DNA of 64,000 bases from an uncultured Rikenellaceae bacterium (GCA_964390565.1 CAYMII010000001.1:47230-111229), one strand, 5' to 3'. Shown: positions 35,738 to 51,094, counted from the stretch's first letter. Notes: generated by a model not told the origin, from the sequence alone. A program made the numbers and translations.

Positions 35738-37006
35738 CTAGAATTTTAACATTGCTTCAATTTGAACTTTCTCTGATATTTTGTTGCCCATAAACACATC
35801 TTTTAGAGCATCCATTGCAAAGATATTGCTTTGATTCAAGTACCAGAAGATGCTATACATAGCGCTATTGCGAGCACCAACTCTTTCACGGAAAGGTATT
35901 TTTACAACTTGTGCTCCAGTTGCAGGTGCCTCAAGGCTTTCATCAATCAATAAAAGACCACCTTTCATTCTACCTGCTGCTGCACGAGCATAGTTTAACC
36001 CATCAACTGATGTAATAACCAAAACATCAGGAATTGGTGAGCCAGTGTAAAGTATTTGCTCTGGTGATATTATAACTTCAGATGCAGAGAAACCAACACC
36101 AACAGTTACAGGGTAGCTACCCTTTTTAGTTGCGTTTAATCCCGTTAGCATTGCCGCTTTGGAAAGAAATTCAGCAGCTGATTGCACACCTTCACCAGCA
36201 GAACCAGAAAGCATAATGCTTACAGGTTTTGTTAGGTTGTGTGAATGTTTTGGAGTAATCTCAAACTTATCAGAGATTAAACTTTTTGGGGATTGATTAA
36301 GAGGTTTAGAATAAACCTTATCTTTTCCCGAAACAAAAGTTTTTACCTCCCAGCCCGAATCCTCAACTAGCTTCGAGAGTTTCATTCCTGGATTAGACTT
36401 TACTCCATAGCTTGGGCAGATTTCCATTACCTCAACTAGAGAGAATCCCTTTGCATTGAAAGCATCGACAAGAACATCACTGTAATCACCAATACCGATT
36501 ACGCGTTGAACGTGCGATGCACCAGCAGCAGTAATTAGCTCGCAAATATCATAACCCGCTTTAGCGCTTCCTTCGGGAAGAGTAGGGGTTTTGAAGCCAC
36601 ATGGTGTAAATTCAGATGGTTGACCACCAGTCATACCGTATAGCATGTTGTTGTGAACCACAACAGTCATATCGAAACCAAGGTGCGCTGCACCGATAAG
36701 ATGTTGCATACCGATGGTTGCACCGCCATCGCCAACAAAAACAATCACTTTTTTAGTTGGGTTGCTAATCGCTGCAGCGATACCCCCACCTAATGCTACA
36801 GAACGACCGTGAAGTCCGTGAACTGTATGTGTTAGGAAACTCTTATCCACAATACCATGGCAACCGATATCGGTTACAAGGATAACATCGAGCAGGTCAA
36901 CGCCCATTTTTTGGAGTGCCTTCTCGGTATTTTGGGTAATTGTAGCATGTCCACAACCTTTACAGAAAGGTAATTCGGACCCTGTTAGGAATGATATATT
37001 ATTCAT
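35738..37006 (-). CDS. 2-oxoacid:ferredoxin oxidoreductase, fused beta (TPP-binding) and gamma domains
   Basis: FCKGCGH, FVGDGGATIGMQH and NNMLYGMTGGQ (TPP motif). The C-terminal SGSAGEGVQSAAEFL is a POR-gamma-type domain. Confidence 0.85.
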   Translation of the reverse strand: MNNISFLTGSELPFCKGCGHATITQNTEKALQKMGVDLLDVILVTDIGCHGIVDKSFLTHTVHGLHGRSVALGGGIAAAISNPTKKVIVFVGDGGATIGMQHLIGAAHLGFDMTVVVHNNMLYGMTGGQPSEFTPCGFKTPTLPEGSAKAGYDICELITAAGASHVQRVIGIGDYSDVLVDAFNAKGFSLVEVMEICPSYGVKSNPGMKLSKLVEDSGWEVKTFVSGKDKVYSKPLNQSPKSLISDKFEITPKHSHNLTKPVSIMLSGSAGEGVQSAAEFLSKAAMLTGLNATKKGSYPVTVGVGFSASEVIISPEQILYTGSPIPDVLVITSVDGLNYARAAAGRMKGGLLLIDESLEAPATGAQVVKIPFRERVGARNSAMYSIFWYLNQSNIFAMDALKDVFMGNKISEKVQIEAMLKF

Positions 37007-38129
37007 TGCGAAGTACCTCCTCTATGATTTCGTTAGGACTAATCATTTTTGCAATGCCATTAACCCCTGTAACGCCTTTGCGACCTGCAACACCAAAGAG
37101 TAATTGACGTAATTGACCAGTTAAATTCTCTTCGGCAACAACAATTCTAGAATATCTATTTGCTATTTCGATGTACTCCTTTGGAATTGGAAGTAAGGTC
37201 TTAGCAGCAAGGAATGATACTTTTTTGCCCTGTAAACGGAGCTGTTTAACCGCTTCGCGTGATGCTTGAGCAGTAATATCGTAAGAGATAATTAGAGTAT
37301 CGGCATCCTTTTGCTCATCGAGCTCAAAGAAGGTGTACTCTTTGATATGCTTTTCGTGCTTTTTCTGAAGCCTCTTTGTGTTATCTATCGCCTCTGGCGA
37401 TGTATTTTGTAAAATACCCTTTGTGTCATGGGTTGATGCAGTAATTCTAACCTGATGCTCCTTTTGATTTACAGCAAGGAATTCAGGAACTAAAACATCA
37501 TTGTAAGCATAAGGCAGATAAGGTGCTTTACCCTCAAAGGTTTTAATCTTGGTTGGTTTTATTTCAGATAGTTTTGACCAATCGTAGCTTAAAAGAGTCA
37601 TTACCATCTCCTTTGAAGTTAGAAGAACAACAGGAGTTCTTAGCTTGATCGCTGTTTCAACGGCTTTTGCCGATAAATCCCAGCAATCATCAATATTGCT
37701 GATGCAAAGGGTTGGTAATTCGAACCCTCCAGAAAGTGTTCCGTAAACAACCGATAAATCCCCTTGAGCACCACAAGTTGCGGTACCAGTAGCTGGGCCA
37801 AGGCGTTGAACAAGGATAATTACCATTGGCAACTCCTGTATATACGCCATGTTGATAGATTCAACCATCAAGGCATAGCCAGGGAAAGATGTAGCAGTAA
37901 CTGGTACATGACCAGCAGCTGCAAATCCTGCCATCCACTGCAAGGTGGTAATTTCATCGGGGGCAGCAAGCATTGTTGGATAACGCTTACTAGCGTAGAG
38001 ATATAGGTTATTTGCGGGTGTAATGGGATACCCAATAAACACATCCGCACCAGCTCTAACACACGACTCCGTTATCAACCTTGAACCGTCGATAAAGGCT
38101 TTCGTTTTACTTTCCGTTGTTGCGTGCAT
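36999..38129 (-). CDS. 2-oxoacid:ferredoxin oxidoreductase alpha subunit
   Basis: GYPITPAN and TSFPGYALMVESI, KorA/PorA-like pyrimidine-binding and domain II patterns. It overlaps the beta/gamma start by 8 nt. Confidence 0.85.
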   Translation of the reverse strand: MHATTESKTKAFIDGSRLITESCVRAGADVFIGYPITPANNLYLYASKRYPTMLAAPDEITTLQWMAGFAAAGHVPVTATSFPGYALMVESINMAYIQELPMVIILVQRLGPATGTATCGAQGDLSVVYGTLSGGFELPTLCISNIDDCWDLSAKAVETAIKLRTPVVLLTSKEMVMTLLSYDWSKLSEIKPTKIKTFEGKAPYLPYAYNDVLVPEFLAVNQKEHQVRITASTHDTKGILQNTSPEAIDNTKRLQKKHEKHIKEYTFFELDEQKDADTLIISYDITAQASREAVKQLRLQGKKVSFLAAKTLLPIPKEYIEIANRYSRIVVAEENLTGQLRQLLFGVAGRKGVTGVNGIAKMISPNEIIEEVLRNE

Positions 38130-39327
38130 AAACTACATTATTTTCGATTAAACACTGTATATTTTCTGTTGAGAAACCAAGCATATCCTTTAAAACTTGC
38201 ATTGTATGCTCCCCATAATGAGGCGGAGCAGAAATAGCACTAGGTTTATCTTTTCCATTAAAGGTAAATGCTATCGTTCTAAGCCCTTTAATTCTCATTC
38301 CTGAACCAGTTGTTGACTCCATTACTAGTTCCTTAGCCTCGGGAAGTTCAAAAACTTCTTGCATGTTAAAAACGCCACCAGCAGGAACACTTTTTTTATC
38401 TAATAGTTCAAGGAAAGGATCCCTTTCAACTTCACCAATTAGTTGTTGAAGAATAGCAACCACCTCTTCTCTATTGCTAACCCTGTTGAAATTATTAGCA
38501 AACTTAGGATCTTTAGCCAATTCGGGTTTTCCCAGAATTGAACAAAGGTCAGAAAATTGTTTGTCGTTTCCAACAGCCAAAACAACAGGTTTTTCATCCT
38601 TTGTATAAAATATGGTTCCGTAAGGAACGATGTTTGGATGATCGGAACCCATCTGCTTAGGAATGCTTTCGCCAACAAGCCAATTGGTTGCCTGATTTGC
38701 CAGCGAAGCAACTCCGCTCTTTATCAAGCTAACCTCAAAGTATTGACCGTTTCCAGTGCGCTCACGATTAAGCAGTGCAAGTAAAACAGCCTCTTTAATC
38801 TGATGACTTGCAAGTAAATCCATTAATGCCACAGGCATTTTAACAGGTTTGCCATTTGGCTCACCATTCATGAACGTATATCCGCTTTCGGCTTGAATAA
38901 TGGCATCGTAACCAGCACGTGGGTTCTTAAGTCCATAACCAGTTAGGTGAGCGTATATCAATTTCTTATTACGCTGGCTAAGCGTATTATAATCAACTTT
39001 AAGCTTCTCGGCATCGCCGGGTTTGTAGCTAACCAAAACGATATCACAAATTGAGGCTAAACGGTAAACAATATCTAGTCCATCAGGCGTATTAAGGTTA
39101 AGCGAGATAGATTTCTTTCCCCAGTTGGCACAGCTGAAATACCCCGAAATATCAGTTGTTGAATCCTCAGATGTTAACTTCCATGTACGGGTTACATCGC
39201 CACAGGTTAAAAGGTTTTCAACCTTAATAACCGTTGCTCCAAGTTCGGCTAGTGAAACACCTACAGTTGGGCCAGCAAGGACATTGGCAAGTTCTAAAAC
39301 TCTTATCTCTTTTAAAGGCAAAAACAT
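38107..39327 (-). CDS. family III CoA-transferase (CaiB/BaiF/SUGCT-like)
   Basis: RVLELANVLAGP, VIKVE, 406 aa and the catalytic-Asp region (MDLLAS) fit the interlocked-dimer family. Confidence 0.85.
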   Translation of the reverse strand: MFLPLKEIRVLELANVLAGPTVGVSLAELGATVIKVENLLTCGDVTRTWKLTSEDSTTDISGYFSCANWGKKSISLNLNTPDGLDIVYRLASICDIVLVSYKPGDAEKLKVDYNTLSQRNKKLIYAHLTGYGLKNPRAGYDAIIQAESGYTFMNGEPNGKPVKMPVALMDLLASHQIKEAVLLALLNRERTGNGQYFEVSLIKSGVASLANQATNWLVGESIPKQMGSDHPNIVPYGTIFYTKDEKPVVLAVGNDKQFSDLCSILGKPELAKDPKFANNFNRVSNREEVVAILQQLIGEVERDPFLELLDKKSVPAGGVFNMQEVFELPEAKELVMESTTGSGMRIKGLRTIAFTFNGKDKPSAISAPPHYGEHTMQVLKDMLGFSTENIQCLIENNVVYARNNGK

Positions 39328-39331
39328 TGTA

Positions 39332-40786
39332 TTATACTTTTTGTGCTAGTTCTCTTTTCTTTTTAAATCTTGAATACATATTTCCAACAAAAATGAAGAA
39401 GATTGTAGCAATGATACTTGCATAGGTTTTGTCGAGGTTAAACCATTCCATTTTTCTCGCTATTAGGCTAAATACAATTGCAAGTGTACCACCTATAAAT
39501 GCGAAACGAACAGCATACTGTGATATCCAATTTAACTTGTAAATACCTAAAAGGATTACAATTGCACCAATTGCACGAATTGCGTACGAGAAATAACCCG
39601 CATCAAGTACTGCACCATGGATAAAAATTGCCATGGGAACAGTAATAAGATTAACTAGAATTACCAAACGACGAGCGAATCTCAGCACGTTTTCGTCGGT
39701 TGCATCCTTTTTGAAAAGACCATGATAGATATCTTTTGTAGCAATGGTAACGATGGCAAAGTTAACAGGTCCAATGGTTGAAAGGATTGCTGCAAGAATT
39801 GCCGCAATTGCAAGTCCTCCAAGTACTGGATGAATAAACTCTGGAGTCATAAGTAGTCGTGGTAAAACCTCTTTTGCATCAACTACGGTTGCTGGGTCGA
39901 AGAAGATTCCGCTTCGTGCCATCAAACCTAAAAAGGCGGTCATTAACCCGAAAGGAGCAATGAAAAGTGCTGATAGAATTGCTGCACGTTTAGCTGTTAA
40001 GGGAGTTTTTGCTGCAAATACAGGCTGGATACTTGCCTGAGCAGCCATACCACCAAGGATTCCACCAAGGATTAAGCTAAATGCTGCTGTCCATCCCATG
40101 CTAAATGGGTTATAGTAGTTCGTTGGAGCGCCTGCTGCAACGAGTTTTTCCGATAATACTGAGAAATTCCCGATTGCCATAAATCCTACCACAACTGCAA
40201 TTCCAATTCCAATATATCGAACTATTAAGTTAATAATAGCAACGATGGTAAGCGCGTGCATCCCTCCAATATACATATAAAGCGTTGTTATTGCTGCGCC
40301 AAGAATAACTGCCCAAATCCAGTTGATATTAAAAATGGGGGCTAAAACGTGCGAAAAAGTAGTTAACTCAACATAAGCTAAAGTGATGAATGCGATAAGG
40401 AATGCAATAGCTGAAATAGTTCTTGCCTTTTTACCAAAGATGCTCTCAATCATCTCGCTTACAGTATGCACTTTCTTTTCGCGATAGTGCTTTGCGAGGG
40501 TAAAACCTAAAATGAGCATCCCTATTGCAGTGGAAATATTGTAAAGAATTGGTTGAAGCGACATGGTGTGGAACGCTTTTTCGCTAACACCAATTGTACT
40601 CAACCCACCAAGCCATTCGGCTGCAATAACAATTGAACAGACTAGCACGCCTAGGTTACGACCAGCAACTAGGTAATCTGATGATGATTTTGTGGCAATC
40701 TTTTTTGTTAAAAATGATATGCCAATCACTAAAGCAAAGTAAGAAAGAACCACCCATATATATGGGTTTGAGAAAACAGAATCCAT
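39332..40786 (-). CDS. sodium:solute symporter (SSS) family transporter
   Basis: About 13 TM segments and 484 aa, with a general SSS pattern (GRNLG, AEWLGG). It ends 4 nt upstream of the CoA-transferase start. Confidence 0.8.
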   Translation of the reverse strand: MDSVFSNPYIWVVLSYFALVIGISFLTKKIATKSSSDYLVAGRNLGVLVCSIVIAAEWLGGLSTIGVSEKAFHTMSLQPILYNISTAIGMLILGFTLAKHYREKKVHTVSEMIESIFGKKARTISAIAFLIAFITLAYVELTTFSHVLAPIFNINWIWAVILGAAITTLYMYIGGMHALTIVAIINLIVRYIGIGIAVVVGFMAIGNFSVLSEKLVAAGAPTNYYNPFSMGWTAAFSLILGGILGGMAAQASIQPVFAAKTPLTAKRAAILSALFIAPFGLMTAFLGLMARSGIFFDPATVVDAKEVLPRLLMTPEFIHPVLGGLAIAAILAAILSTIGPVNFAIVTIATKDIYHGLFKKDATDENVLRFARRLVILVNLITVPMAIFIHGAVLDAGYFSYAIRAIGAIVILLGIYKLNWISQYAVRFAFIGGTLAIVFSLIARKMEWFNLDKTYASIIATIFFIFVGNMYSRFKKKRELAQKV

Positions 40787-41783: not shown

Positions 41784-42488
41784 CTAGCCTTTTAAACTCA
41801 CTTGATTAAGTCGGTCGTAGTCACAAATTTCGATATATTCATTAGTAACCTTTATAAGACCATCAGCTTTAAATTTTGTGATAATTCGAGAGATGCTTTC
41901 GATTGACATTCCGCAAAGCTCGGCAAATTCCTTACGGGTAAGCTGAAGAGGAAATTTCTGGGTTTTATAAATTCTATTAGCAAGACAAAGAATAACATCA
42001 GCAAGCCTTCCATAGTTTTGTTTCATTGTTAAACAGTAGAATCGGCCATTCGATATTAGAGTCTGTTCTGCAAGGGTATTAATTATTTTTGCAGCAAAAG
42101 CAGGATTGGATTTAATTAGCTGGTTAACAATGTTTATTTCAATGAGACTTATCTTCGATTCCATATAAACCTGTGCAGAATATTGGTATGTTGTATGGCC
42201 TTCGATAAGCGAAGATAAACCAATAATATTCACAGGAGGGAATAGTTGAAGTATCAGGTTATCATTAACCCCTTCAATGTACGTTTTTGCTAAACCCTCA
42301 CGAATAATCATTATATGCGTGGCAAATGAACCTTGTTTACATATAATCTCTCCCTTTTTATATGAGATATCAACGGTTTTTGAATCTAAAAACAGTTTCT
42401 CATCATTGGTTAAAAGGTCAATACACTCAAGTTTGTTAGTTCCTATTGAGCAGCTATCGAGGATAGTATTCTTATTATTCCCATTCAT
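41784..42488 (-). CDS. Crp/Fnr-family transcriptional regulator
   Basis: A cNMP-binding beta-roll (GEIICKQGSFATHIMIIREGLAK) and a C-terminal HTH (LTRKEFAELCGMSIESISRIITKF). No N-terminal Cys cluster of the E. coli FNR type is evident. Confidence 0.85.
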   Translation of the reverse strand: MNGNNKNTILDSCSIGTNKLECIDLLTNDEKLFLDSKTVDISYKKGEIICKQGSFATHIMIIREGLAKTYIEGVNDNLILQLFPPVNIIGLSSLIEGHTTYQYSAQVYMESKISLIEINIVNQLIKSNPAFAAKIINTLAEQTLISNGRFYCLTMKQNYGRLADVILCLANRIYKTQKFPLQLTRKEFAELCGMSIESISRIITKFKADGLIKVTNEYIEICDYDRLNQVSLKG

Positions 42489-42538
42489 TTTTTTAAACTA
42501 AGATTTACAAATATACTAATCTATATAACATAAATCAT

Positions 42539-42552
42539 TTGATTTATATCAG
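42539..42552. promoter_or_regulatory. Crp/Fnr-type palindrome TTGAT-N4-ATCAG
   Basis: ttgatttatatcag, read directly, matches the TTGAT-N4-ATCAA consensus at 9 of 10 positions. It lies in the divergent region between the regulator gene and the cytochrome gene. Confidence 0.45.
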
Positions 42553-42629
42553 CTCCATTCTTGATCAGGAAACCATTTCGTTTTGCTTCATGAGATCTGG
42601 TTTTCTAAATATAATCTTATACGAAAGAA

Positions 42630-42637
42630 TACATTTG
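42630..42637 (+). promoter_or_regulatory. TAnnTTTG box upstream of the cytochrome gene
   Basis: tacatttg at 42630-42637, about 115 nt upstream of ATG 42752. Confidence 0.3.
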
Positions 42638-42751
42638 CTGTTATTCAGATAACAATCGTTGGACCTTATTTTTTTGCATAAATAAATAGTTAACAGTCCA
42701 ATTGATGAATAGTTTAAAAAATATTATCAAGCATAATAAAATACTAGGAAC

Positions 42752-44122
42752 ATGATTATAAAAGTTAAAAAAGAGGGGTTTATTTTGTTGATACTTGCGG
42801 TTGCAATGCAGGCAATTATAAGTTGTACAAATTATCAGTTCGATCCAACAACCCATTCGAACTCCCTTGCTTCTTGCGAGGGGTGTCATACGAATTATGC
42901 GCATCTGCAAAAGGTTTTCTCGCCCGATACTGCTGCACCTGCAGGTGGCTGTGGGGGCGAGGCTCCGCATTACGAACCTTTCGATAGGGTTTATATGGGT
43001 GGTGAGGGATTTAGCGCATTTAAAAGTTCAACACATTACCAAATGGGATGTGTTAGTTGTCATAATGGCAATAATAACACTGCTGACAAAACCCTAGCTC
43101 ATGGTAGTAATTTTATTTCTCACCCCTCGATGTTTGCCAGCGAGAAGTGTGGAACATGCCACGAGCAAATTGTTAATAATTTCGAAACCAGTATCCATAA
43201 CGGAACTGGACAAAAACGAAAAGTAACCATTCGCAGCGGTTTGGCTGGTCCTGATGAGTTCGATCAGCTTCCAGCGCATCAAATTGAGGGATATAATAAG
43301 AATTGTGCTACTTGTCATGGAACTTGTGGTAATTGCCATATTGTTCGTCCAGCAATAGGCGGTGGAGGCTTGGCTAGTGGTCATAATTTTACCAAAAAGC
43401 CCGATATGGTTAACGTGTGCGTTACCTGCCACGTTTCTCGTGGAGGTCATGCTTATCTAGGCGTTGCATCTGGAACACAACCTGATGTGCACTTAACCAA
43501 AATGGGATTTAAGTGTACCGATTGTCATAGCGGCGAGGAGTTACATGGCGATGGTGTAAAAGTTGATCAGCGATATGCTTACTCTAAACTACCTAAGTGC
43601 GATGATTGCCATACTGGTATAGCAACAGAAAATACTTATCATTCTGTTCATTACGATGACTTTAACTGTCAGGTTTGCCACTCGCAAGTATATAATAATT
43701 GCGCCAGCTGTCATATTCACGGTGATGGTGCAAGAGTTCCCTCTTATATGGGATTTAAGATAGCTTCGAACCCTATTCCTGCTATCAAAACTGGTTTTGA
43801 ATTCACTTTGGTTCGCCGTACACTTGCTGCACCTGACAATTGGGAAAAGTATGGTGTTTCTAGCTACTCCAATTTTGATGCTTTTCCAACCTATAATTAT
43901 ACTTCGCCTCATAACCTTTTGAGGTGGACCGATCGAACAAAAGTTGCCGATGGCAAATCGTGCTCATCAAATTGTCATATACGTAATGAGGGGGGCGTGT
44001 TGATTAATAAGAGTTTATTTCTACATCAGAGCGATTTATTGCCATGGGAAACTGCTGCAACAACAGGGATTACTGTTGATGGTAAATTGCCTGCATCATG
44101 GTTAGTCGAAGTAAAAAAATAA
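42752..44122 (+). CDS. decahaem c-type cytochrome lipoprotein (10 CxxCH + 1 CxxxCH)
   Basis: Lipobox AIISC. CxxCH motifs counted by eye: CEGCH, CVSCH, CGTCH, CATCH, CGNCH, CVTCH, CTDCH, CDDCH, CQVCH, CASCH, plus CSSNCH. The first motif was verified on the DNA at 42875-42889. Confidence 0.9.
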   Translation: MIIKVKKEGFILLILAVAMQAIISCTNYQFDPTTHSNSLASCEGCHTNYAHLQKVFSPDTAAPAGGCGGEAPHYEPFDRVYMGGEGFSAFKSSTHYQMGCVSCHNGNNNTADKTLAHGSNFISHPSMFASEKCGTCHEQIVNNFETSIHNGTGQKRKVTIRSGLAGPDEFDQLPAHQIEGYNKNCATCHGTCGNCHIVRPAIGGGGLASGHNFTKKPDMVNVCVTCHVSRGGHAYLGVASGTQPDVHLTKMGFKCTDCHSGEELHGDGVKVDQRYAYSKLPKCDDCHTGIATENTYHSVHYDDFNCQVCHSQVYNNCASCHIHGDGARVPSYMGFKIASNPIPAIKTGFEFTLVRRTLAAPDNWEKYGVSSYSNFDAFPTYNYTSPHNLLRWTDRTKVADGKSCSSNCHIRNEGGVLINKSLFLHQSDLLPWETAATTGITVDGKLPASWLVEVKK

Positions 44123-44161
44123 GAATCTTTTTCAGTAAATAACCTTAAATCGAAAAACACT

Positions 44162-45169
44162 ATGAAGACTTTTTCAAAACTTTTAATGCTAAGCGTTCTA
44201 TTCGCTTTCATTTTTGTAACATCTTGTAAAAAGGATGATGCTGAACCCAAAATTAACGAGGCACAAGTTCTTGTTGAATATTTGGAATCTGCAAACTCTC
44301 CTCTAATGAAGGATTATGTTAGTACAGATATGCCTTCGATTATGCCAGCGAGTGAAGTTAAGACTTTAATGGCTACCAATAAAGTTTATATCATAGATAT
44401 CAGATCTACAGTTGATTTTGCAGCAGGTCATATTGAAGGTGCTCATAATATTGCTTTAGCTGATATTCTAACACACGTTGAAGGTGTTGCTATGGCTGAT
44501 TATGATAAAGTTGCTATTGTTTGTTATACAGGCCAAACAGCAGGTTTTGCAGCTTCTTTACTTAGAATTATGGGATATTCTAAAGTATTTTCAATGAAAT
44601 GGGGTATGTGTGCTTGGCATGTTGATTTCGCAAGCAGATGGAATAACACTATTGCTGCAGGTAATGCTTATGCTGCACAATTTACAACTACTGCAACTGC
44701 AAAAGGGGTAGCTGGTGAACTGCCTGAACTTAATACTGGAAAGAAAACAGGTCAAGAGATTTTAGAGGCAAGAGTTAGCGCTTTGCTTACTGAAGGATTT
44801 GGTGCTGCTTCGGTTACAAATGGTACTGTTTTTGGAAGTTTATCGAACTATTATATTGTAAACTATTGGTCAACTACACACTATGCAATTGGTCATATTC
44901 CTGGTGCAATGCAGTACACCCCAAAAGAGTCATTAAAGCTTATTGCTGACCTAAAAACTCTTCCTACTGATAAAACAATTGCAGTTTATTGCTATACAGG
45001 TCAAACCAGCGCATTCCTAGCTGCTTACTTACGTTTATTAGGTTATGATGCTAAATCCATTTTATATGGAACAAATGGTATGATCTACGATTTAATGGTA
45101 ACAAATTCAATGACTGTATTTAAAGCAGATCAGATTATGGGTTACACTTATGTTGCTCCTACGAAATAG
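44162..45169 (+). CDS. tandem rhodanese-domain lipoprotein
   Basis: Lipobox FVTSC followed by KKDDAE. There are two rhodanese modules, each with the active-site loop CYTGQT (first Cys codon 44522-44524 verified) and an upstream IDIRS/GHIEGA or GHIPGA motif. Confidence 0.85.
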   Translation: MKTFSKLLMLSVLFAFIFVTSCKKDDAEPKINEAQVLVEYLESANSPLMKDYVSTDMPSIMPASEVKTLMATNKVYIIDIRSTVDFAAGHIEGAHNIALADILTHVEGVAMADYDKVAIVCYTGQTAGFAASLLRIMGYSKVFSMKWGMCAWHVDFASRWNNTIAAGNAYAAQFTTTATAKGVAGELPELNTGKKTGQEILEARVSALLTEGFGAASVTNGTVFGSLSNYYIVNYWSTTHYAIGHIPGAMQYTPKESLKLIADLKTLPTDKTIAVYCYTGQTSAFLAAYLRLLGYDAKSILYGTNGMIYDLMVTNSMTVFKADQIMGYTYVAPTK

Positions 45170-45190
45170 TTAAGAAAATATTGAATAAAT

Positions 45191-45217
45191 AAAGGCTACT
45201 TCATTGAAGTAGCCTTT
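45191..45217. terminator. bidirectional stem-loop between convergent genes
   Basis: aaaggctactt (45191-45201) pairs with aagtagccttt (45207-45217). Confidence 0.65.
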
Positions 45218-45232
45218 ATCTTTTATTGTAAA

Positions 45233-46063: not shown

Positions 46064-46228
46064 TACTTACAATTTAATGCTTCAAATGTAGCAAAATAAA
46101 GTGTGGGGAATTGGAATTAAGCCAATGATGAGAAAAGACATAAGAGGATACTATGATTGAATGTAATGTTTTGTTATTCATGGAGATACATTATTTATCA
46201 ACATCCATGAAATCATGAATGATTTTTC

Positions 46229-46236
46229 TACCTTTG
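46229..46236 (+). promoter_or_regulatory. TAnnTTTG box upstream of the DinD-like gene
   Basis: tacctttg lies 19 nt upstream of ATG 46255, which supports that start over the track start at 46219. Confidence 0.35.
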
Positions 46237-46254
46237 TTATATAATAATACTTCC

Positions 46255-47100
46255 ATGACAAAAGAAACTGCAATAAAACTTTTTGAGCAAAGAAAAATTC
46301 GCTCTTTATGGATTGAAAAGGAAGAGAAATGGTACTTCTCAATTATAGATGTTATTGAAGTTTTGACGGGAACAGATCGTCCGAGGAAATATTGGAACGA
46401 CTTAAAAACGAAGCTTAAAAAGGAAGGAAGTGAACTGTCCGAAAAAATCGGACAGTTGAAATTAGTTGCTGAAGACGGAAAACAAAGGTTAACCGATGTT
46501 GCTGATACAGAGCAACTATTCCGCTTGATTCAGAGCATTCCATCTCCTAAAGCAGAGCCATTTAAAATGTGGTTGGCACAGGTTGGGAGAGAACGCATAG
46601 ACGAAATTGAAGACCCAGAAATTGGTATTGACCGATTAATGGAAACTTACCTTCGTAAGGGTTATACCAAAGAATGGATAAACCAGCGGCTCAAAAGCAT
46701 TGAGATACGCAAGGAACTCACAGATGAGTGGGATAATAGGGGCGTTAAAAAAGGGCAAGAATATGCAATTTTAACCGACGAAATAACCAAAGCCTGGAGT
46801 GGACTTACAACAAAGCAATATAAGGGCTTTAAAGATTTAAAAAAAGAGAATTTGCGCGACCATATGACTAATCTTGAATTGGTTTTGAATATGCTTGCCG
46901 AAGCCTCTACCACCGAAATCTCAAAGAAAAAAGAACCTAAGACTTTTAACGAGAACAAAGATGTTGCCCGAAAAGGCGGAAATGTAGCAAAAGCAGCACG
47001 TTTACAACTCGAAAAAACAACCGGAAAAAAGGTAGTAACCCAGTTAAATGCCAAGAATTTGGACAATCCCATGCTGAAAACTAGCAACGATAAGGAGTAA
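46255..47100 (+). CDS. Bro-N / DinD-like (DNA-damage-inducible protein D family) protein
   Basis: The N-terminal IRSLWIEKEEKWYFSIIDVIEVLT is Bro-N-like. The remainder parallels E. coli DinD as I recall it (RDHMTNLELVLNMLAEASTTEI; DVARKGGNVAKAARLQLEKTTGKKV). Confidence 0.65.
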   Translation: MTKETAIKLFEQRKIRSLWIEKEEKWYFSIIDVIEVLTGTDRPRKYWNDLKTKLKKEGSELSEKIGQLKLVAEDGKQRLTDVADTEQLFRLIQSIPSPKAEPFKMWLAQVGRERIDEIEDPEIGIDRLMETYLRKGYTKEWINQRLKSIEIRKELTDEWDNRGVKKGQEYAILTDEITKAWSGLTTKQYKGFKDLKKENLRDHMTNLELVLNMLAEASTTEISKKKEPKTFNENKDVARKGGNVAKAARLQLEKTTGKKVVTQLNAKNLDNPMLKTSNDKE

Positions 47101-47282
47101 ACACCCAAATTACATTGACAATATATCTCTCAGCAATTTCTAATTAATGCTGTTTAACAGGCTGAAAATGAATGCTTGTAATCCAATCATTTACTATATT
47201 TGGGTTAACCTTATACATTCAATTGTAGCGTTTAAATGAAGAAAGTTTTAGATTTAAGAACATATCGGTAAAACAATCAAAA

Positions 47283-48128
47283 ATGAAAGGTCCAGAATTT
47301 TTAAAATATATTAATCCTGTATTGACTGCACTTCAAGCGAATGGTGGTGCAGGTGACTCTTCAGATATCATTGAACAAGTCATCGATAAGTTAGGAATTA
47401 CAGAAACAGAACTTGAGGAAACTACCTCAAATGGGCAATCTCGAATTAGAAATCAAATACAATGGGCAAGGTTTTATTTGTTCAAAGCAGGACTTATTGA
47501 TAATGCTCAAAGAGGCTTATGGAGACTTACAAACGAAGGTCTTGACAAAAAATTGAATGATGACGAGGTATATAAACTTTTTAAGAGTGTTCAAGATAGT
47601 GTGAAAAAGACACCTATAACAAAACCTCAAAAAACAGAACCAGTATTTGAAAACACTCCGACTGAAGACGAAGAACATTCTATAGGATTAATCAATATTA
47701 TTCAAAACCTTTCTCCTTCAGGATTTGAGAAATTATGCAAAAGACTTTTAACAGAAATCGGGATAAATGAGATTTTAATTACTGGCGGCTCGGGTGACCA
47801 AGGTATTGATGGAAAAGGAATTGTAAAACTGAATGATGTTGTTAGTTTAAATATTGTTTTTCAATGTAAGCGATACAAAGAAACTGTATCGCCCCATCAC
47901 GTTAGAGATTTTCGTGGAGCAATGCAAGGACGTGGTGAAAAAGGACTTATTATAACTACAGGACGTTTTACAAAAGAAGCTAAGAGTGAAGCAAATCGTG
48001 ATGGTGTAACACCAATAGAATTAATTGATGGTGATAGGCTTATTGAACTTTTTGAAAAATACCGTCTAGGGTTAAAACCAGTTACAATATTTGAGATTGA
48101 CCAAGAGTTTTTTAAAGGTTTTTCATAA
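47283..48128 (+). CDS. Mrr-like type IV restriction endonuclease (Mrr_N + Mrr_cat)
   Basis: An N-terminal winged-helix (IRNQIQWARFYLFKAGLI) and a C-terminal PD-(D/E)xK core: GGSGDQGIDGKG...VFQCKRY...VRDFRGAM...GLIITTGRFTKEA. Confidence 0.85.
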   Translation: MKGPEFLKYINPVLTALQANGGAGDSSDIIEQVIDKLGITETELEETTSNGQSRIRNQIQWARFYLFKAGLIDNAQRGLWRLTNEGLDKKLNDDEVYKLFKSVQDSVKKTPITKPQKTEPVFENTPTEDEEHSIGLINIIQNLSPSGFEKLCKRLLTEIGINEILITGGSGDQGIDGKGIVKLNDVVSLNIVFQCKRYKETVSPHHVRDFRGAMQGRGEKGLIITTGRFTKEAKSEANRDGVTPIELIDGDRLIELFEKYRLGLKPVTIFEIDQEFFKGFS

Positions 48129-49081: not shown

Positions 49082-51094
49082 CTAGCTATCGATTCGAATA
49101 GAGTTTATTAGCCCAACAAAGTAATCGGCATCGCTAGCCGAAGGGTAGCATGTTCGTCCAATACAAATCTTTAGCTGACCATCGCTTACCAATTGCTTCG
49201 AATTGCTGTTATTTAGTATTGTTGAGTAGATAACAGGGCATATCACTTTAGACTGAATTTGATTTAGCGTATTTCGGCTATCGCTCGAATCGAACCGGAT
49301 ATGCACTGTTGGTAGCTGAAAAGAAAGCATCAGCTTAGCCCACCCAAAAACGTATGGCCCGCCATGCTCAAGGGATGAAGTGATATTTGCAAGCATCTGC
49401 TTTACCATATCGATATACTTCTCGTTACTAACGATAATACCAATATCGAAAAGGTTTTGCGCCATTGTTGAACCCGATGAGGTAATTACACCATCGGTCA
49501 AATCCATCTTTCGGGCAATAAGGTCAGTTTTGTCGATTGGGGCAAAGAAGAACATGCCCGATTCATTATCGTAAAAGTTCTGGATTACAGTTTCAACCAG
49601 CCTTTCGGCTTTAGCTAGCATAAAAGTATCAAGCGTTACCTTATAAACCGATAGATAGGCTTTAATCAGGTTTGCATAATCGTCCAAAAGAGCATCAACT
49701 GAGAGTTTATTTTTACAGAAAACTCGCTTAAGTTTACCATCGTTGTAGTGATGATGTTCAATATAGTTTAAACCATTTATTGCGGCGTTTAAGTATTTCT
49801 CGTCGCCAAATGATAGGTACGCCTCAGTTAACGCCGAAATTAGTAATCCGTTCCACGAAACAAGTATTTTATCGTCTAGCCCCGGTTTTGTGCGTTTTTT
49901 TCTAACATCTAAAAGAACCTGTTTTGCCTTATCGATTTTGCTGTTTGCCGTTGAGCAATCAATTGAAAAAAGACATTTTAAATGCTCTTTCGAAGCGCAT
50001 CTATTTAATACGTTGCTACCATCGAAATTACCTGCAGCGGTTACGCCGTAGGCAACCGAAAAGAGCTCGGCATCGTTATTTAGCAAATCTTCAATCTCTT
50101 TCTTTGTCCATGTGTAATAGGTTCCCTCTTTGCCATCGCTATCGGCATCGTATGATGAGTAAAAGCCACCAAGGCTCGATTTCATCTCGTTAAGCAAAAA
50201 GTCGACGGTTTCACTTACAATATCTTTATAATGCTCATTTTTATTAAGCCTGTAGGCTTTTGAGTAAATTGATATTAGCTGCGCATTATCGTAAAGCATC
50301 TTTTCGAAATGGGGGATAAGCCAGTTCTCATCAACGGAATATCGAGCAAAACCACCCCCAAGATGATCGTAAATACCTCCCTGTCCAATCTTATCAAGCG
50401 TAAGCGTTACAAAGTCGGTTATCTCCTTATCGTCGGAGTGAAAGCTGTAATTCAGTAGAAAATCCAATAGCCCGGGCATTGGAAACTTTGGTGCTCCTTT
50501 TATTCCACCGTTTCGTGTATCGAAAAGCCTTTTCAGCCTATTAGCATAATCCTTTAAGTTGATGTTTGTGATTGTTTCGGGTAAATTTTTAAACCGGATA
50601 ATCTCAGTACCAACAATGCTATTGGCAAGTTCATCGGCAACATCAACAATTCTTTTTGGGTCTTTTTGCCAAGCCTCGTCAAGGCTTTTTAGAACATTCA
50701 GCCAGTTGGTGGTTGAGAAGTATGTTCCACCAAAAACAGGCTTACCGTTTGGTAGGGCAAAGCAGTTCAATGGCCAACCACCGCTGCGGTTGATGATTTG
50801 AACAGCATTCATGTAAATCTGATCAACATCGGGCCTTTCCTCCCTATCAACCTTAATATTTACAAAATGGGTGTTCATAAACTCGGTTGCCTCGGGATTT
50901 GAGAAAGCTTCGTGCTCCATAACGTGGCACCAGTGGCAGCTGCTATAACCGATGCTAACAAGCACAAGCTTGTTTTCGGCTTTTGCTTTACTAAAGGCCT
51001 CTTCGCCCCATGGGTACCAATCAACAGGATTGGTGGCGTGTTGCAATAAATATGGACTCGTCTCGAGTGATAGTCTATTTAAATGGGATTTCAT
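49082..51094 (-). CDS. thioredoxin-domain (DUF255) / six-hairpin glycosidase-like protein (YyaL/SPATA20 family)
   Basis: [13 protein letters not shown]...[14 protein letters not shown] at the N-terminus, followed by a long alpha/alpha-toroid-like region. 670 aa. Confidence 0.85.

Follow-up and report, generated by a model that had tools for sequence, protein, structure and literature searches.

A three-gene cassette with a multihaem cytochrome of a predicted Sec/Cys family and a tandem rhodanese: a candidate molybdenum-independent sulfane-sulfur reductase

To our knowledge, the reduction of sulfur, polysulfide or thiosulfate without molybdoenzymes of the Psr/Phs type has a single published haem-based answer, MccSep of Geobacter (2026). 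A stretch of 64,000 nucleotides from an uncultured Rikenellaceae bacterium (GCA_964390565.1 CAYMII010000001.1:47230-111229; 'the window' in what follows) holds a second, unrelated haem-based candidate, far more widespread than MccSep. This is a three-gene cassette, kept across Bacteroidota, which codes for an Fnr-like regulator, a lipoprotein cytochrome with eleven haem sites and a rhodanese lipoprotein with two active sites (Table 1). We propose that its products form an anaerobically induced, rhodanese-fed, haem-driven reductase of sulfane sulfur, with polysulfide or S0, thiosulfate and possibly selenite as substrates, a reading of the sequences that we judge quite as apt to hold as to fail. 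The most informative feature of the cassette, a cysteine of the cytochrome (C67) that is matched in homologues by predicted selenocysteine (Sec), was overlooked in the initial annotation of this DNA, which had described a decahaem cytochrome paired with a rhodanese under an Fnr-type box.

The family is large: metagenomes contain about 1,000 clusters of the cytochrome and more than 3,000 of the rhodanese, the species genomes of Bacteroidota that carry it number at least 78, and the sulfur-cycling Desulfobulbales and Nitrospirota have large clades of fused forms with predicted Sec. It can be tested through its Sec/Cys residue, its two rhodanese cysteines and its single regulator site. Were the proposal true, Bacteroidales would join the drivers of sulfidogenesis in sediments, digesters and sulfidic waters, a systematic misannotation ('thiosulfate/3-mercaptopyruvate sulfurtransferase') would be corrected, and a probable selenoprotein family would gain a function.

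A cysteine matched by a predicted selenocysteine

C67, the 24th cysteine of the cytochrome and the one absent from the first description, is found in 75 of 76 cytochrome homologues, and the segment G65-G69 that surrounds it is invariant in a separate alignment of 41 sequences (A1). In the AlphaFold2 model discussed below this GGCGG loop is the least confident internal segment, with a predicted local distance difference test (pLDDT) value of 58.

The meaning of this cysteine becomes apparent in relatives where cytochrome and rhodanese are fused. Every fused gene examined is preceded, in frame, by an open reading frame (ORF) of 61-81 codons, with 9 nt between the end of that frame and the start that was called. 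Read through the stop, locus L086 gives ...SGSG before it and GGAVAPLEPWEKV after it; L087 gives ...AGKG and GGSVAPLELWEKV; L090 and L091 give ...SGSG and ...SGAG respectively, both followed by GGSVAPLEPQEKV. The same holds for L088 and L089 (...GEG, then GGSVPPVEAWAKV), where the cytochrome is a separate lipoprotein beside a tandem rhodanese of its own. In all six cases (L086, L087, L088, L089, L090 and L091) the interrupting stop is TGA, and its alignment with C67 of the window protein (...AGGCGGEAPHYEPFDRV) is free of gaps. A BLASTP comparison of the window cytochrome with the reconstituted L088 protein (E 2e-77, 35% identity) places GGCGG over EG[U]GG.

Bacterial selenocysteine insertion sequence (SECIS) elements are expected, under the bSECIS rules, to present an apical loop bearing G/U about 20 nt from the UGA. 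A hairpin of 17 predicted pairs, two of them compensatory, starts about 10 nt after the TGA, and its apical loop contains G/U some 20 nt from the UGA. Loci L086-L091 thus combine an in-frame UGA at the position of a conserved cysteine with a SECIS-like hairpin, the combination that defines a Sec/Cys family, and insertion of Sec is predicted there; the window gene, with TGT at codon 67, has the Cys form. Among 62 representatives from outside Bacteroidales, about 25 begin only at query residues 71-80, which we read as the trace of gene calls truncated at the TGA, about 13 have cysteine in x-C-G-G, and six have tryptophan or tyrosine.

A conserved cysteine that is Sec in homologues is a classical mark of a redox-active catalytic residue. 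Because position 67 is such a Sec/Cys pair, C67 is likely to be redox-active, and a catalytic role may be suggested for it. Outside Bacteroidales, a rhodanese partner accompanies the cytochrome in six of the seven loci with Sec/Cys, versus one of the four without; that the site predicts the partner there is suggestive, the numbers being too small and L092 and L082 being exceptions.

The genes in question are broken in the databases. Public gene calls split L086:6791-8920, L087:6752-8947, L090:4806-6923, L091:273-2393 and L088:1688-3109 at the in-frame TGA, which yields an 'orphan' ORF of 61-81 aa and an N-terminally truncated main ORF. These split cytochrome and cytochrome-rhodanese genes are probably unannotated selenoproteins, and no NCBIfam model covers the proteins reconstituted by reading through the TGA. 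The Geobacter 'rhodanese selenoprotein form 1' (WP_010941598.1) may belong to this fused family, in which the site reads U-G-G-S.

Table 1. The cassette and its signals, in coordinates of the window
Feature	Position	Strand	Remarks
Crp/Fnr-family regulator, 234 aa	41784-42488	-	divergent from the operon; Pfam HTH_Crp_2, cNMP_binding, Crp
Fnr-type palindrome TTGAT-N4-ATCAG, TTGATTTATATCAG	42539-42552	.	in the 263-nt shared intergenic region
Lipoprotein multihaem cytochrome c, 456 aa	42752-44122	+	10 CxxCH and CSSNCH; Cys form of the predicted Sec/Cys family
Invariant GGCGG loop with C67 (codon 42950-42952)	42944-42958	+	proposed redox-active or carrier Cys
CSSNCH (CX3CH), probable 11th haem site, in the C-terminal beta-rich domain	43961-43978	+	residues 404-409
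Tandem-rhodanese lipoprotein, 335 aa	44162-45169	+	begins 39 nt after the cytochrome stop; lipobox Cys C22
Lipidated Cys and KKDDAE, Bacteroidota lipoprotein export signal	44225-44245	+	rhodanese N-terminus
Terminator-like hairpin, 14-bp stem and T-run	45189-45229	+	20 nt 3' of the rhodanese stop codon

The multihaem cytochrome and its relatives

What the initial annotation had seen in the cytochrome is all present: the length, the lipobox (the signal peptide ends AIIS, followed by the lipobox cysteine C25), ten CxxCH motifs at residues 42, 100, 133, 185, 192, 223, 255, 283, 306 and 317, the two motifs packed back to back (CATCHGTCGNCH, 43304-43339) and the aberrant CSSNCH. All haem-motif cysteines and histidines, C404, C408 and H409 of CSSNCH included, are invariant in the 76 homologues, and so are eleven further histidines outside the motifs. 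The label 'decahaem' is right for the CxxCH motifs and probably one short for the protein: since the last motif is a canonical CxxCH (CNHCH, CNNCH, CEGCH) in distant relatives, CSSNCH is probably an eleventh haem site, and the protein, if every site is occupied, would be undecahaem.

A search of protein collections returned about 1,000 relatives at E<=1e-3, the nearest of which are 70-92% identical and come from metagenome-assembled genomes (MAGs) of Bacteroidales, Tenuifilaceae, Salinivirgaceae, Lentimicrobiaceae, Prolixibacteraceae and similar groups. Among 1.84 billion cluster representatives, 491 relatives were found, 114 of them at E<=1e-30, typically with 30-40% identity and 370-770 aa. 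Annotation has served them poorly. At JGI, unfused Bacteroidales cytochromes carry the name 'thiosulfate/3-mercaptopyruvate sulfurtransferase', which is explained by the existence of fused cytochrome-rhodanese relatives annotated for their rhodanese part. In one related locus (L074:8297-11338) the cytochrome gene stands in tandem duplicate.

In Pfam and NCBIfam no curated family takes in the cytochrome above its cut-off; Pfam gives only generic c7/c3 motif matches and, for the MtrC domain, a match below threshold. The PDB, searched with the single sequence, yielded no match, and a profile search found matches at the level of haem motifs only, to GSU1996, OcwA, NrfA/B and MccSep (E 0.029). An AlphaFold2 model built on an alignment that includes distant relatives reached a pLDDT of 89.3 and a predicted template modelling (pTM) score of 0.83; an earlier run, for which the alignment was shallow (41 sequences of 69-78% identity), had a pLDDT of 45 and was discarded, the addition of 50%-cluster representatives raising it to 89. 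The model shows a helical haem-binding region followed, from about residue 314, by a beta-rich C-terminal domain. When it is compared with the PDB by Foldseek, the sole meaningful match is 1sp3, the octahaem tetrathionate reductase (OTR) of Shewanella (probability 0.98, E 7.7e-3), with HAO and NrfA far behind. This match is weak (20% identity over 240 columns, template modelling (TM) score 0.28), so that any relationship between the cytochrome and OTR would be distant at most.

A rhodanese partner, adjacent or fused

Gene neighbourhoods were surveyed in 81 related Bacteroidota loci, 80 of them from a scan of species-representative genomes (all MAGs of Bacteroidota type) and one, L001, from a contig look-up; ORFs were called in all of them and their products clustered. 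The expectation that the pair is conserved is borne out: the rhodanese gene is the next same-strand gene downstream of the cytochrome in 72 of the 74 loci with room for it, at a distance of 2-81 nt, and the divergent upstream neighbour is a Crp/Fnr gene in 65 of 70. Outside these three genes the flanks vary between lineages, and the unit is therefore a portable three-gene cassette. In the window the terminator-like hairpin closes the two-gene operon and faces a convergent aminotransferase gene; because of its place after the rhodanese stop, the cytochrome and rhodanese genes look like a bicistronic operon.

The rhodanese lipoprotein, described in the initial annotation with two CYTGQT loops and KKDDAE behind its lipidated cysteine, is as it was described. 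It matches Pfam Rhodanese (PF00581) with 98.9 bits over two domains, each of which has the six-residue loop that begins with cysteine (44522-44539 with C121, 44990-45007 with C277), and C22, C121 and C277 are invariant in 72 homologues. This family is as divergent as that of the cytochrome. Since both domains keep their catalytic cysteine, the window protein is not a classical two-domain rhodanese of the TST/SseA type, in which the N-terminal domain is inactive; the fused relatives do show this classical arrangement, with D in the first rhodanese loop. In L070 the rhodanese gene is present in duplicate.

Fusions extend the association well beyond Bacteroidota. Two long representatives, P0164 and P0176, consist of the cytochrome followed by two C-terminal rhodanese domains, and a search with P0164 found at least 526 fusion proteins of about 640 aa in MAGs of Desulfobulbaceae, Desulfobacterales, Desulfofustis, Geobacteraceae, Thermodesulfobacteriota, Nitrospirota and Pseudomonadota, annotated as 'rhodanese-like domain-containing protein' or 'thiosulfate sulfurtransferase'. 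In a Sulfurovum MAG (L083:5741-9148), a NOX-like Ferric_reduct/FAD/NAD gene, the cytochrome gene and a gene for a single-domain rhodanese follow one another on one strand; the NOX-like membrane protein would move cytoplasmic reducing power outwards. The L083 cytochrome has an extra N-terminal monohaem domain. Pairing with a rhodanese thus takes three forms across unrelated phyla, namely an adjacent tandem protein, an adjacent single domain and a fusion, and it is this near-obligate adjacency, together with the Rosetta-stone fusions, that argues for a functional coupling of cytochrome and rhodanese.

Where the two proteins reside is less straightforward. The optimum signal for surface export of Bacteroidota lipoproteins, C-X-K-(D/E)2-X, has been defined experimentally (PMC5080379). 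Of 72 rhodanese homologues, 53 have the strict form C-x-K-[DE]-[DE] and 70 carry two or more acidic residues at +2 to +7. The strict signal occurs in none of 75 cytochromes; the window protein reads CTNYQFD, some homologues are acidic, and both proteins of the Sec-type pair in L088 begin CSDDDD. Read literally, this predicts a rhodanese on the cell surface and a cytochrome on the periplasmic face. The initial description of a surface-exposed module can accordingly be kept, as a prediction, for the rhodanese, and lacks its signal in the window cytochrome.

Proposed control by a Crp/Fnr-type regulator

The divergent regulator satisfies the criteria of a Crp/Fnr transcription factor, with matches above cut-off to PF00027, PF13545 and PF00325. 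It appears not to be an FNR equivalog, as it scores 60.7 bits against the NCBIfam Fnr model NF008365, the cut-off of which is 228. FNR proper was taken to require an N-terminal cluster Cys-x3-Cys-x2-Cys-x5-Cys with a central Cys, an E--SR recognition helix and a TTGAT-N4-ATCAA site. The recognition helix GMSIESISRIITKF (41871-41912) bears the FNR-type E--SR motif, complete in the window protein, with E197 and R201 invariant in 68 homologues, and it fits a TTGAT half-site. Five cysteines are conserved (C13, C22, C50, C152 and C168), the N-terminal ones being arranged as C-x6-C-x-C in 60 of 68 homologues and as C-x8-C in the window, which is not the spacing of FNR. The signal may be O2, sensed by way of an Fe-S cluster, or sulfane sulfur, sensed by way of thiols.

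The palindrome reported between the two divergent genes is there, and it is conserved. Its core TGAT-N4-ATCA is found exactly in 42 of 68 homologous intergenic regions, versus 0.6% of shuffled sequences, and the family consensus reads (C/T)TGAT-N4-ATCA(G/A), with an A-rich flank on one side and a T-rich flank on the other. The distance from the centre of the box to the start codon of the regulator is kept tightly at about 55 nt across the family (57 nt in the window), while that to the ATG of the cytochrome is more variable, with a family median of 132 nt and 206 nt in the window. One box could serve both divergent promoters and autoregulation as well. The window has an extra AT-rich leader between box and cytochrome (42553-42751, 25% GC), without an Rfam match.

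Respiratory and sulfur genes beside the cassette in relatives

Of related loci of at least 12 kb, 16 out of 52 carry respiratory or sulfur genes near the cassette. As cases in point, L018, L019, L028 and L037 have genes for PsrB-like and PsrC/NrfD-like subunits, two Sulf_transp genes of the YeeE/YedE type and an extra rhodanese; only L019, L028 and L037 have a PsrA/PhsA-like molybdoenzyme gene directly downstream, with 455 bits to PhsA versus a cut-off of 694. L001 and the clade L056-L078 share another module, in which a small protein and a DUF5777 'membrane bound beta barrel' go together with two cytochromes, one of them multihaem and about 323 aa long, the other a PhsC-like cytochrome b (173.7 bits); in places they are joined by a 349-aa multihaem cytochrome, a c554-like cytochrome and a 932-aa fusion of a multihaem cytochrome with cytochrome b. 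Genes for cytochrome b, multihaem cytochromes and the DUF5777 barrel adjoin the cassette in about ten loci. Because Psr/Phs-like genes, transporters, an extra rhodanese and cytochrome b adjoin the cassette in these relatives, the sulfur-reductase reading is favoured. The initial annotation had noted that no quinol dehydrogenase lies next to the pair, which is true of the window and does not extend to the family, as such partners are adjacent in about a third of the related loci.

Two further observations concern L076. The 932-aa protein (L076:15636-18434, present in seven loci) joins a multihaem cytochrome with DmsE-like and paired-CXXCH matches to a membrane domain like cytochrome b561/FdnI, and is a candidate one-piece quinol dehydrogenase. 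In L076, and in seven other loci of the clade, a 5'-nucleotidase/SoxB-like gene (L076:5748-7493) and a gene for a 176-aa c554-like cytochrome (L076:12644-13174) flank the cassette. Their products correspond, respectively, to the N-terminal and C-terminal parts of the NCBIfam 'UshA-like (seleno)protein' NF041198, like a split fusion. The first of the two was dropped as evidence for Sox chemistry, because its 75 bits, versus a SoxB cut-off of 550, fit cyclic-nucleotide phosphodiesterases better.

Directly upstream of the cassette of L001, a Tenuifilaceae MAG, lie genes for an Aminotran_5 protein like cysteine desulfurase, a TusA/YedF-like protein, Se_S_carrier, SelD and NTP_transf_3 (L001:4232-8981). 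A selenium-utilisation cluster stands beside the cassette in this one locus of 78, and a role specific for selenium was set aside for that reason.

Comparison with known systems

Wolinella succinogenes uses Sud, a rhodanese located outside the cytoplasm, to bind the sulfur of polysulfide as persulfide and to deliver it to the molybdenum reductase PsrABC. The cassette shares with this system the principle of an extracytoplasmic rhodanese that feeds a respiratory reductase, and differs from it in that the reductase would be a multihaem cytochrome in place of a molybdopterin enzyme, and in that Sud is a soluble single-domain dimer, whereas the window rhodanese is a tandem lipoprotein with two active sites. 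Sud is not among the PDB sequence matches of the rhodanese. That the architecture does not correspond to Psr, Phs or Ttr, as stated in the initial annotation, is borne out by the absence of a molybdopterin catalytic subunit from the window.

A close parallel is found in Geobacter sulfurreducens, where the rhodanese lipoprotein ExtH and the porin ExtI are encoded with MccSep (ExtKL), a Sec-dependent multihaem polysulfide reductase (PMC13510729; PMC5877670), so that there too a rhodanese-like lipoprotein goes with a multihaem cytochrome that has a catalytic Sec or Cys. MccSep is periplasmic and free of molybdenum, turns over selenite as well, and occurs in Sec and Cys forms (PMC13510729; PMC5877670). 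Like the window cytochrome, it has a haem domain followed by a beta-rich C-terminal domain. However, it has five haems versus eleven sites, and no homology between the two is detectable: the profile match to 9wt8/9wt9 (E 0.029) spans about 32 residues, there is no match to the NCBIfam ExtKL model, and the Sec/Cys lies elsewhere, at residue 67 in the window cytochrome. The Ext system further differs in that the window rhodanese is the immediate partner of the cytochrome, sometimes fused to it in relatives, and in that the window has no porin gene.

In Dethiobacter alkaliphilus, DealDRAFT_1917 is a multihaem cytochrome that resembles Otr (about 20% identity) and is encoded next to rhodanese-domain genes; it was misannotated 'thiosulfate sulfurtransferase' and has been proposed to be the S0/thiosulfate reductase of a host that reduces both compounds without molybdenum enzymes (PMC10376724). 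The likeness to the window cytochrome is one of description only; the host is Gram-positive, the protein is described as octahaem and its function is hypothesised. OTR of Shewanella oneidensis (1sp3), the best structural match, is also a multihaem enzyme that acts on sulfur oxyanions with S-S bonds, but it has eight haems versus eleven sites, is soluble in the periplasm and has no rhodanese partner. The exclusion of Otr in the initial annotation thus agrees with the family model (TIGR04315), which does not match the window cytochrome and gives the fused L086 protein 23.6 bits versus a cut-off of 375, and has to be qualified by the fold, the best match of which, weak as it is, is OTR.

Haem enzymes that act on S-S bonds through a cysteine are known in SoxXA-SoxYZ and TsdA, where c-type haems catalyse this chemistry, and the GGCGG cysteine of SoxY is a covalent sulfur carrier (PMC6067878). 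In SoxY the motif forms a C-terminal arm on a small Ig-like protein, and these systems are oxidative; in the cytochrome it is internal (residues 65-69 of 456), and no Sox genes are found in the window. Its identity with the SoxY arm is therefore a likeness of motif, a lead and not membership. Membership of ExtM (NF040943; 25.3 bits, cut-off 800) and of DmsE likewise failed at the curated cut-offs. The cassette belongs to no characterised family; it would work most like ExtH/MccSep and Sud/Psr, yet by the criteria of these systems it is a member of neither. What is new here is a distinct eleven-haem-site Sec/Cys cytochrome, and what is of a known kind are rhodanese-coupled respiratory sulfur reductases.

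A proposed mechanism and its competitors

In the mechanism that we propose, the Crp/Fnr-type regulator would control the two-gene operon through the TGAT-N4-ATCA site. The cytochrome would be anchored in the outer membrane, with its eleven haem sites and a dedicated rhodanese. The latter, predicted to lie at the surface, would load sulfane sulfur from polysulfide/S0 or thiosulfate as a persulfide (or selenium from selenite-derived species), and the sulfane atom, or a mixed disulfide, would be passed to C67 on the flexible GGCGG loop of the cytochrome, C67 either receiving the persulfide or attacking it. The haem chain would then bring two electrons, the bond would be cleaved and sulfide released. 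Menaquinol might be the source of the electrons, with cytochrome b, multihaem or NrfCD-type partners as intermediaries; the genes of such partners would lie elsewhere in this genome, whereas some relatives have them beside the cassette. The net result would be a molybdenum-independent terminal reductase, or an electron sink for sulfane sulfur under anoxia, which would follow the logic of Sud-Psr in Wolinella with a cytochrome in place of the molybdoenzyme, and likewise the logic of MccSep. A reductive direction is favoured because of the Fnr-type box, the E--SR helix and the NOX-like donor gene of Sulfurovum. OTR as the best fold match, and the precedents in Geobacter and Dethiobacter, also speak for the proposal. 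The initial suggestion of an anaerobic module that couples a multihaem conduit to a carrier of sulfur or selenium thereby gains comparative support from the rigid cassette, the fusions, the neighbours linked to sulfur respiration, the conserved box and the export signal of the rhodanese, and stands as a plausible reading of these comparisons.

In Bacteroidota and Sulfurovum the rhodanese stands next to the cytochrome; in Desulfobulbaceae, Geobacteraceae and Nitrospirota the two are fused. A broader proposal may be ventured, though we judge it somewhat less likely than not: that these proteins form a widespread, uncharacterised class of molybdenum-independent sulfane-sulfur reductases with eleven haems, a catalytic Sec/Cys on a SoxY-like GGCGG loop and a dedicated rhodanese that supplies persulfide, and that the surface rhodanese of Bacteroidota might let fermentative Bacteroidales respire with extracellular S0 or polysulfide, or dump electrons onto them.

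Several points weigh against a sulfane-sulfur reductase. The eleven invariant histidines outside the motifs could make all haems bis-histidine ligated, with no open or Cys-ligated catalytic haem, and the fold match to OTR is poor (TM 0.28). The link between the Sec/Cys site and the rhodanese is imperfect: L092 is of the Cys type without a rhodanese, and L082 has tyrosine and is fused nevertheless. The predicted topologies cannot be reconciled with direct transfer between rhodanese and cytochrome, nor with the fusions, both of which require a single compartment. Within the 64-kb window there is no gene for an electron donor, a quinol dehydrogenase or another sulfur enzyme, and 36 of the 52 long related loci have no respiratory or sulfur genes near the cassette. 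Finally, the Sec forms come from Desulfobulbaceae, a family with many members that oxidise or disproportionate sulfur, so that the data would agree with electron flow in either direction.

This last point leads to the strongest competitor, an oxidative module. Sulfur of sulfide, S0 or thiosulfate, held on the rhodanese, on C67 or on both, would be oxidised in the manner of SoxXA/SoxY or TsdA, and electrons would run through the eleven haems to the respiratory chain and on to nitrite, fumarate or low O2. GGCGG is the very motif of the sulfur-carrying arm of SoxY (PMC6067878), the fused relatives of the Sec type are concentrated in Desulfobulbaceae/Desulfobacterales, including sulfide oxidisers and disproportionators, and a 5'-nucleotidase/SoxB-like gene lies near the cassette in eight loci, though with the low score given above. 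Yet the motif is internal to the cytochrome, genes for SoxZ, SoxB and SoxCD are absent, fermentative Bacteroidales make up most of the hosts, the adjoining genes of the Psr/Phs type are reductive, and both the Fnr-type control and the Sulfurovum donor gene point to delivery of electrons to the periplasm. We therefore regard an oxidative function as unlikely.

Reduction with selenite (or tellurite) as the proper substrate keeps the direction of our proposal and changes its purpose. The rhodanese would bind a selenotrisulfide or perselenide that the cytochrome reduces, for detoxification to Se0 or to give selenide for SelD. The sole NCBIfam match of the cytochrome is ExtM of a 'selenite/tellurite reduction operon', ExtI of Geobacter has an effect on the reduction of both selenite and tellurite, and methyl viologen is oxidised by MccSep when selenite is the acceptor (PMC5877670; PMC13510729); the selenium genes beside the L001 cassette go in the same direction. 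However, that adjacency is unique, the ExtM match is far under its cut-off, selenite is scarce in most source habitats, and the window cytochrome is of the Cys form, which gives no sign that its host uses selenium. This makes the alternative rather improbable.

A protective module would dispense with respiration altogether, the cytochrome keeping the rhodanese cysteines or other surface thiols reduced for thiol-persulfide redox maintenance at the envelope or surface, or polysulfide and reactive sulfane sulfur being detoxified in sulfidic habitats. It accords with the lack of an adjacent quinol dehydrogenase or energy-conserving partner in most loci, the window included, with a regulator whose five conserved cysteines, in non-FNR spacing, could sense sulfane sulfur instead of O2, and with the sulfidic origin of several source samples, such as the 'SulCav' MAGs. 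Eleven haems are a large investment for repair, though, and the recurrent association with Psr/Phs-type, cytochrome b and multihaem genes fits respiration better, so that we consider protection decidedly improbable.

A generic cytochrome in the style of MtrC/OmcA or OcwA, made for extracellular electron transfer to Fe(III), Mn(IV), humics or electrodes and with the rhodanese as an accessory, is very improbable: for all that this is a many-haem lipoprotein with weak matches to a Pfam MtrC/MtrF domain (PF22113, 20.3 bits versus a cut-off of 30) and to OcwA (6i5b, E 1e-9, over short haem-motif stretches only), and that DUF5777 beta-barrels and periplasmic multihaem cytochromes lie nearby in about ten loci, there is no TIGR03507 match at E<=1 and no MtrC, OmcA or MtrF among the Foldseek matches, the window cytochrome has no surface-export signal, and an accessory role leaves the near-obligate pairing or fusion with the rhodanese and the Sec/Cys residue unexplained. 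The initial analogy with the Shewanella cytochromes has to be given up accordingly, and the window holds no other CxxCH-rich haem ORF that could be a porin-cytochrome partner of the MtrA/MtrB type.

Genomic setting of the window

The window has in common with the related loci that bear respiratory or sulfur genes only the three cassette genes; the electron donor for a reductase of sulfane sulfur must consequently be encoded elsewhere in the genome. A compositional check of the DNA found no mark of recent transfer, and an Rfam scan of the whole window, long 5' leader included, matched no family. The flanks are of a housekeeping kind (2-oxoacid:ferredoxin oxidoreductase, CoA-transferase, symporter, C-N hydrolase and class IV aminotransferase). 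Among them, a run of genes on one strand at 35738-40786 (-), for two 2-oxoacid:ferredoxin oxidoreductase subunits, a family III CoA-transferase and a sodium:solute symporter, looks like an operon for organic-acid utilisation, unrelated to the cassette.

The sole other ORF of the window with a 'CxxCH' codes for a 670-aa DUF255/thioredoxin-domain protein (49082-51094, minus strand), whose CHWCH is a thioredoxin-like site and not a haem motif. About 1 kb downstream of the cassette, at 46219-48128, the gene of a Bro-N-domain protein stands beside that of an Mrr-type restriction endonuclease (Mrr_N and Mrr_cat), a pair that may be a small mobile or defence islet.

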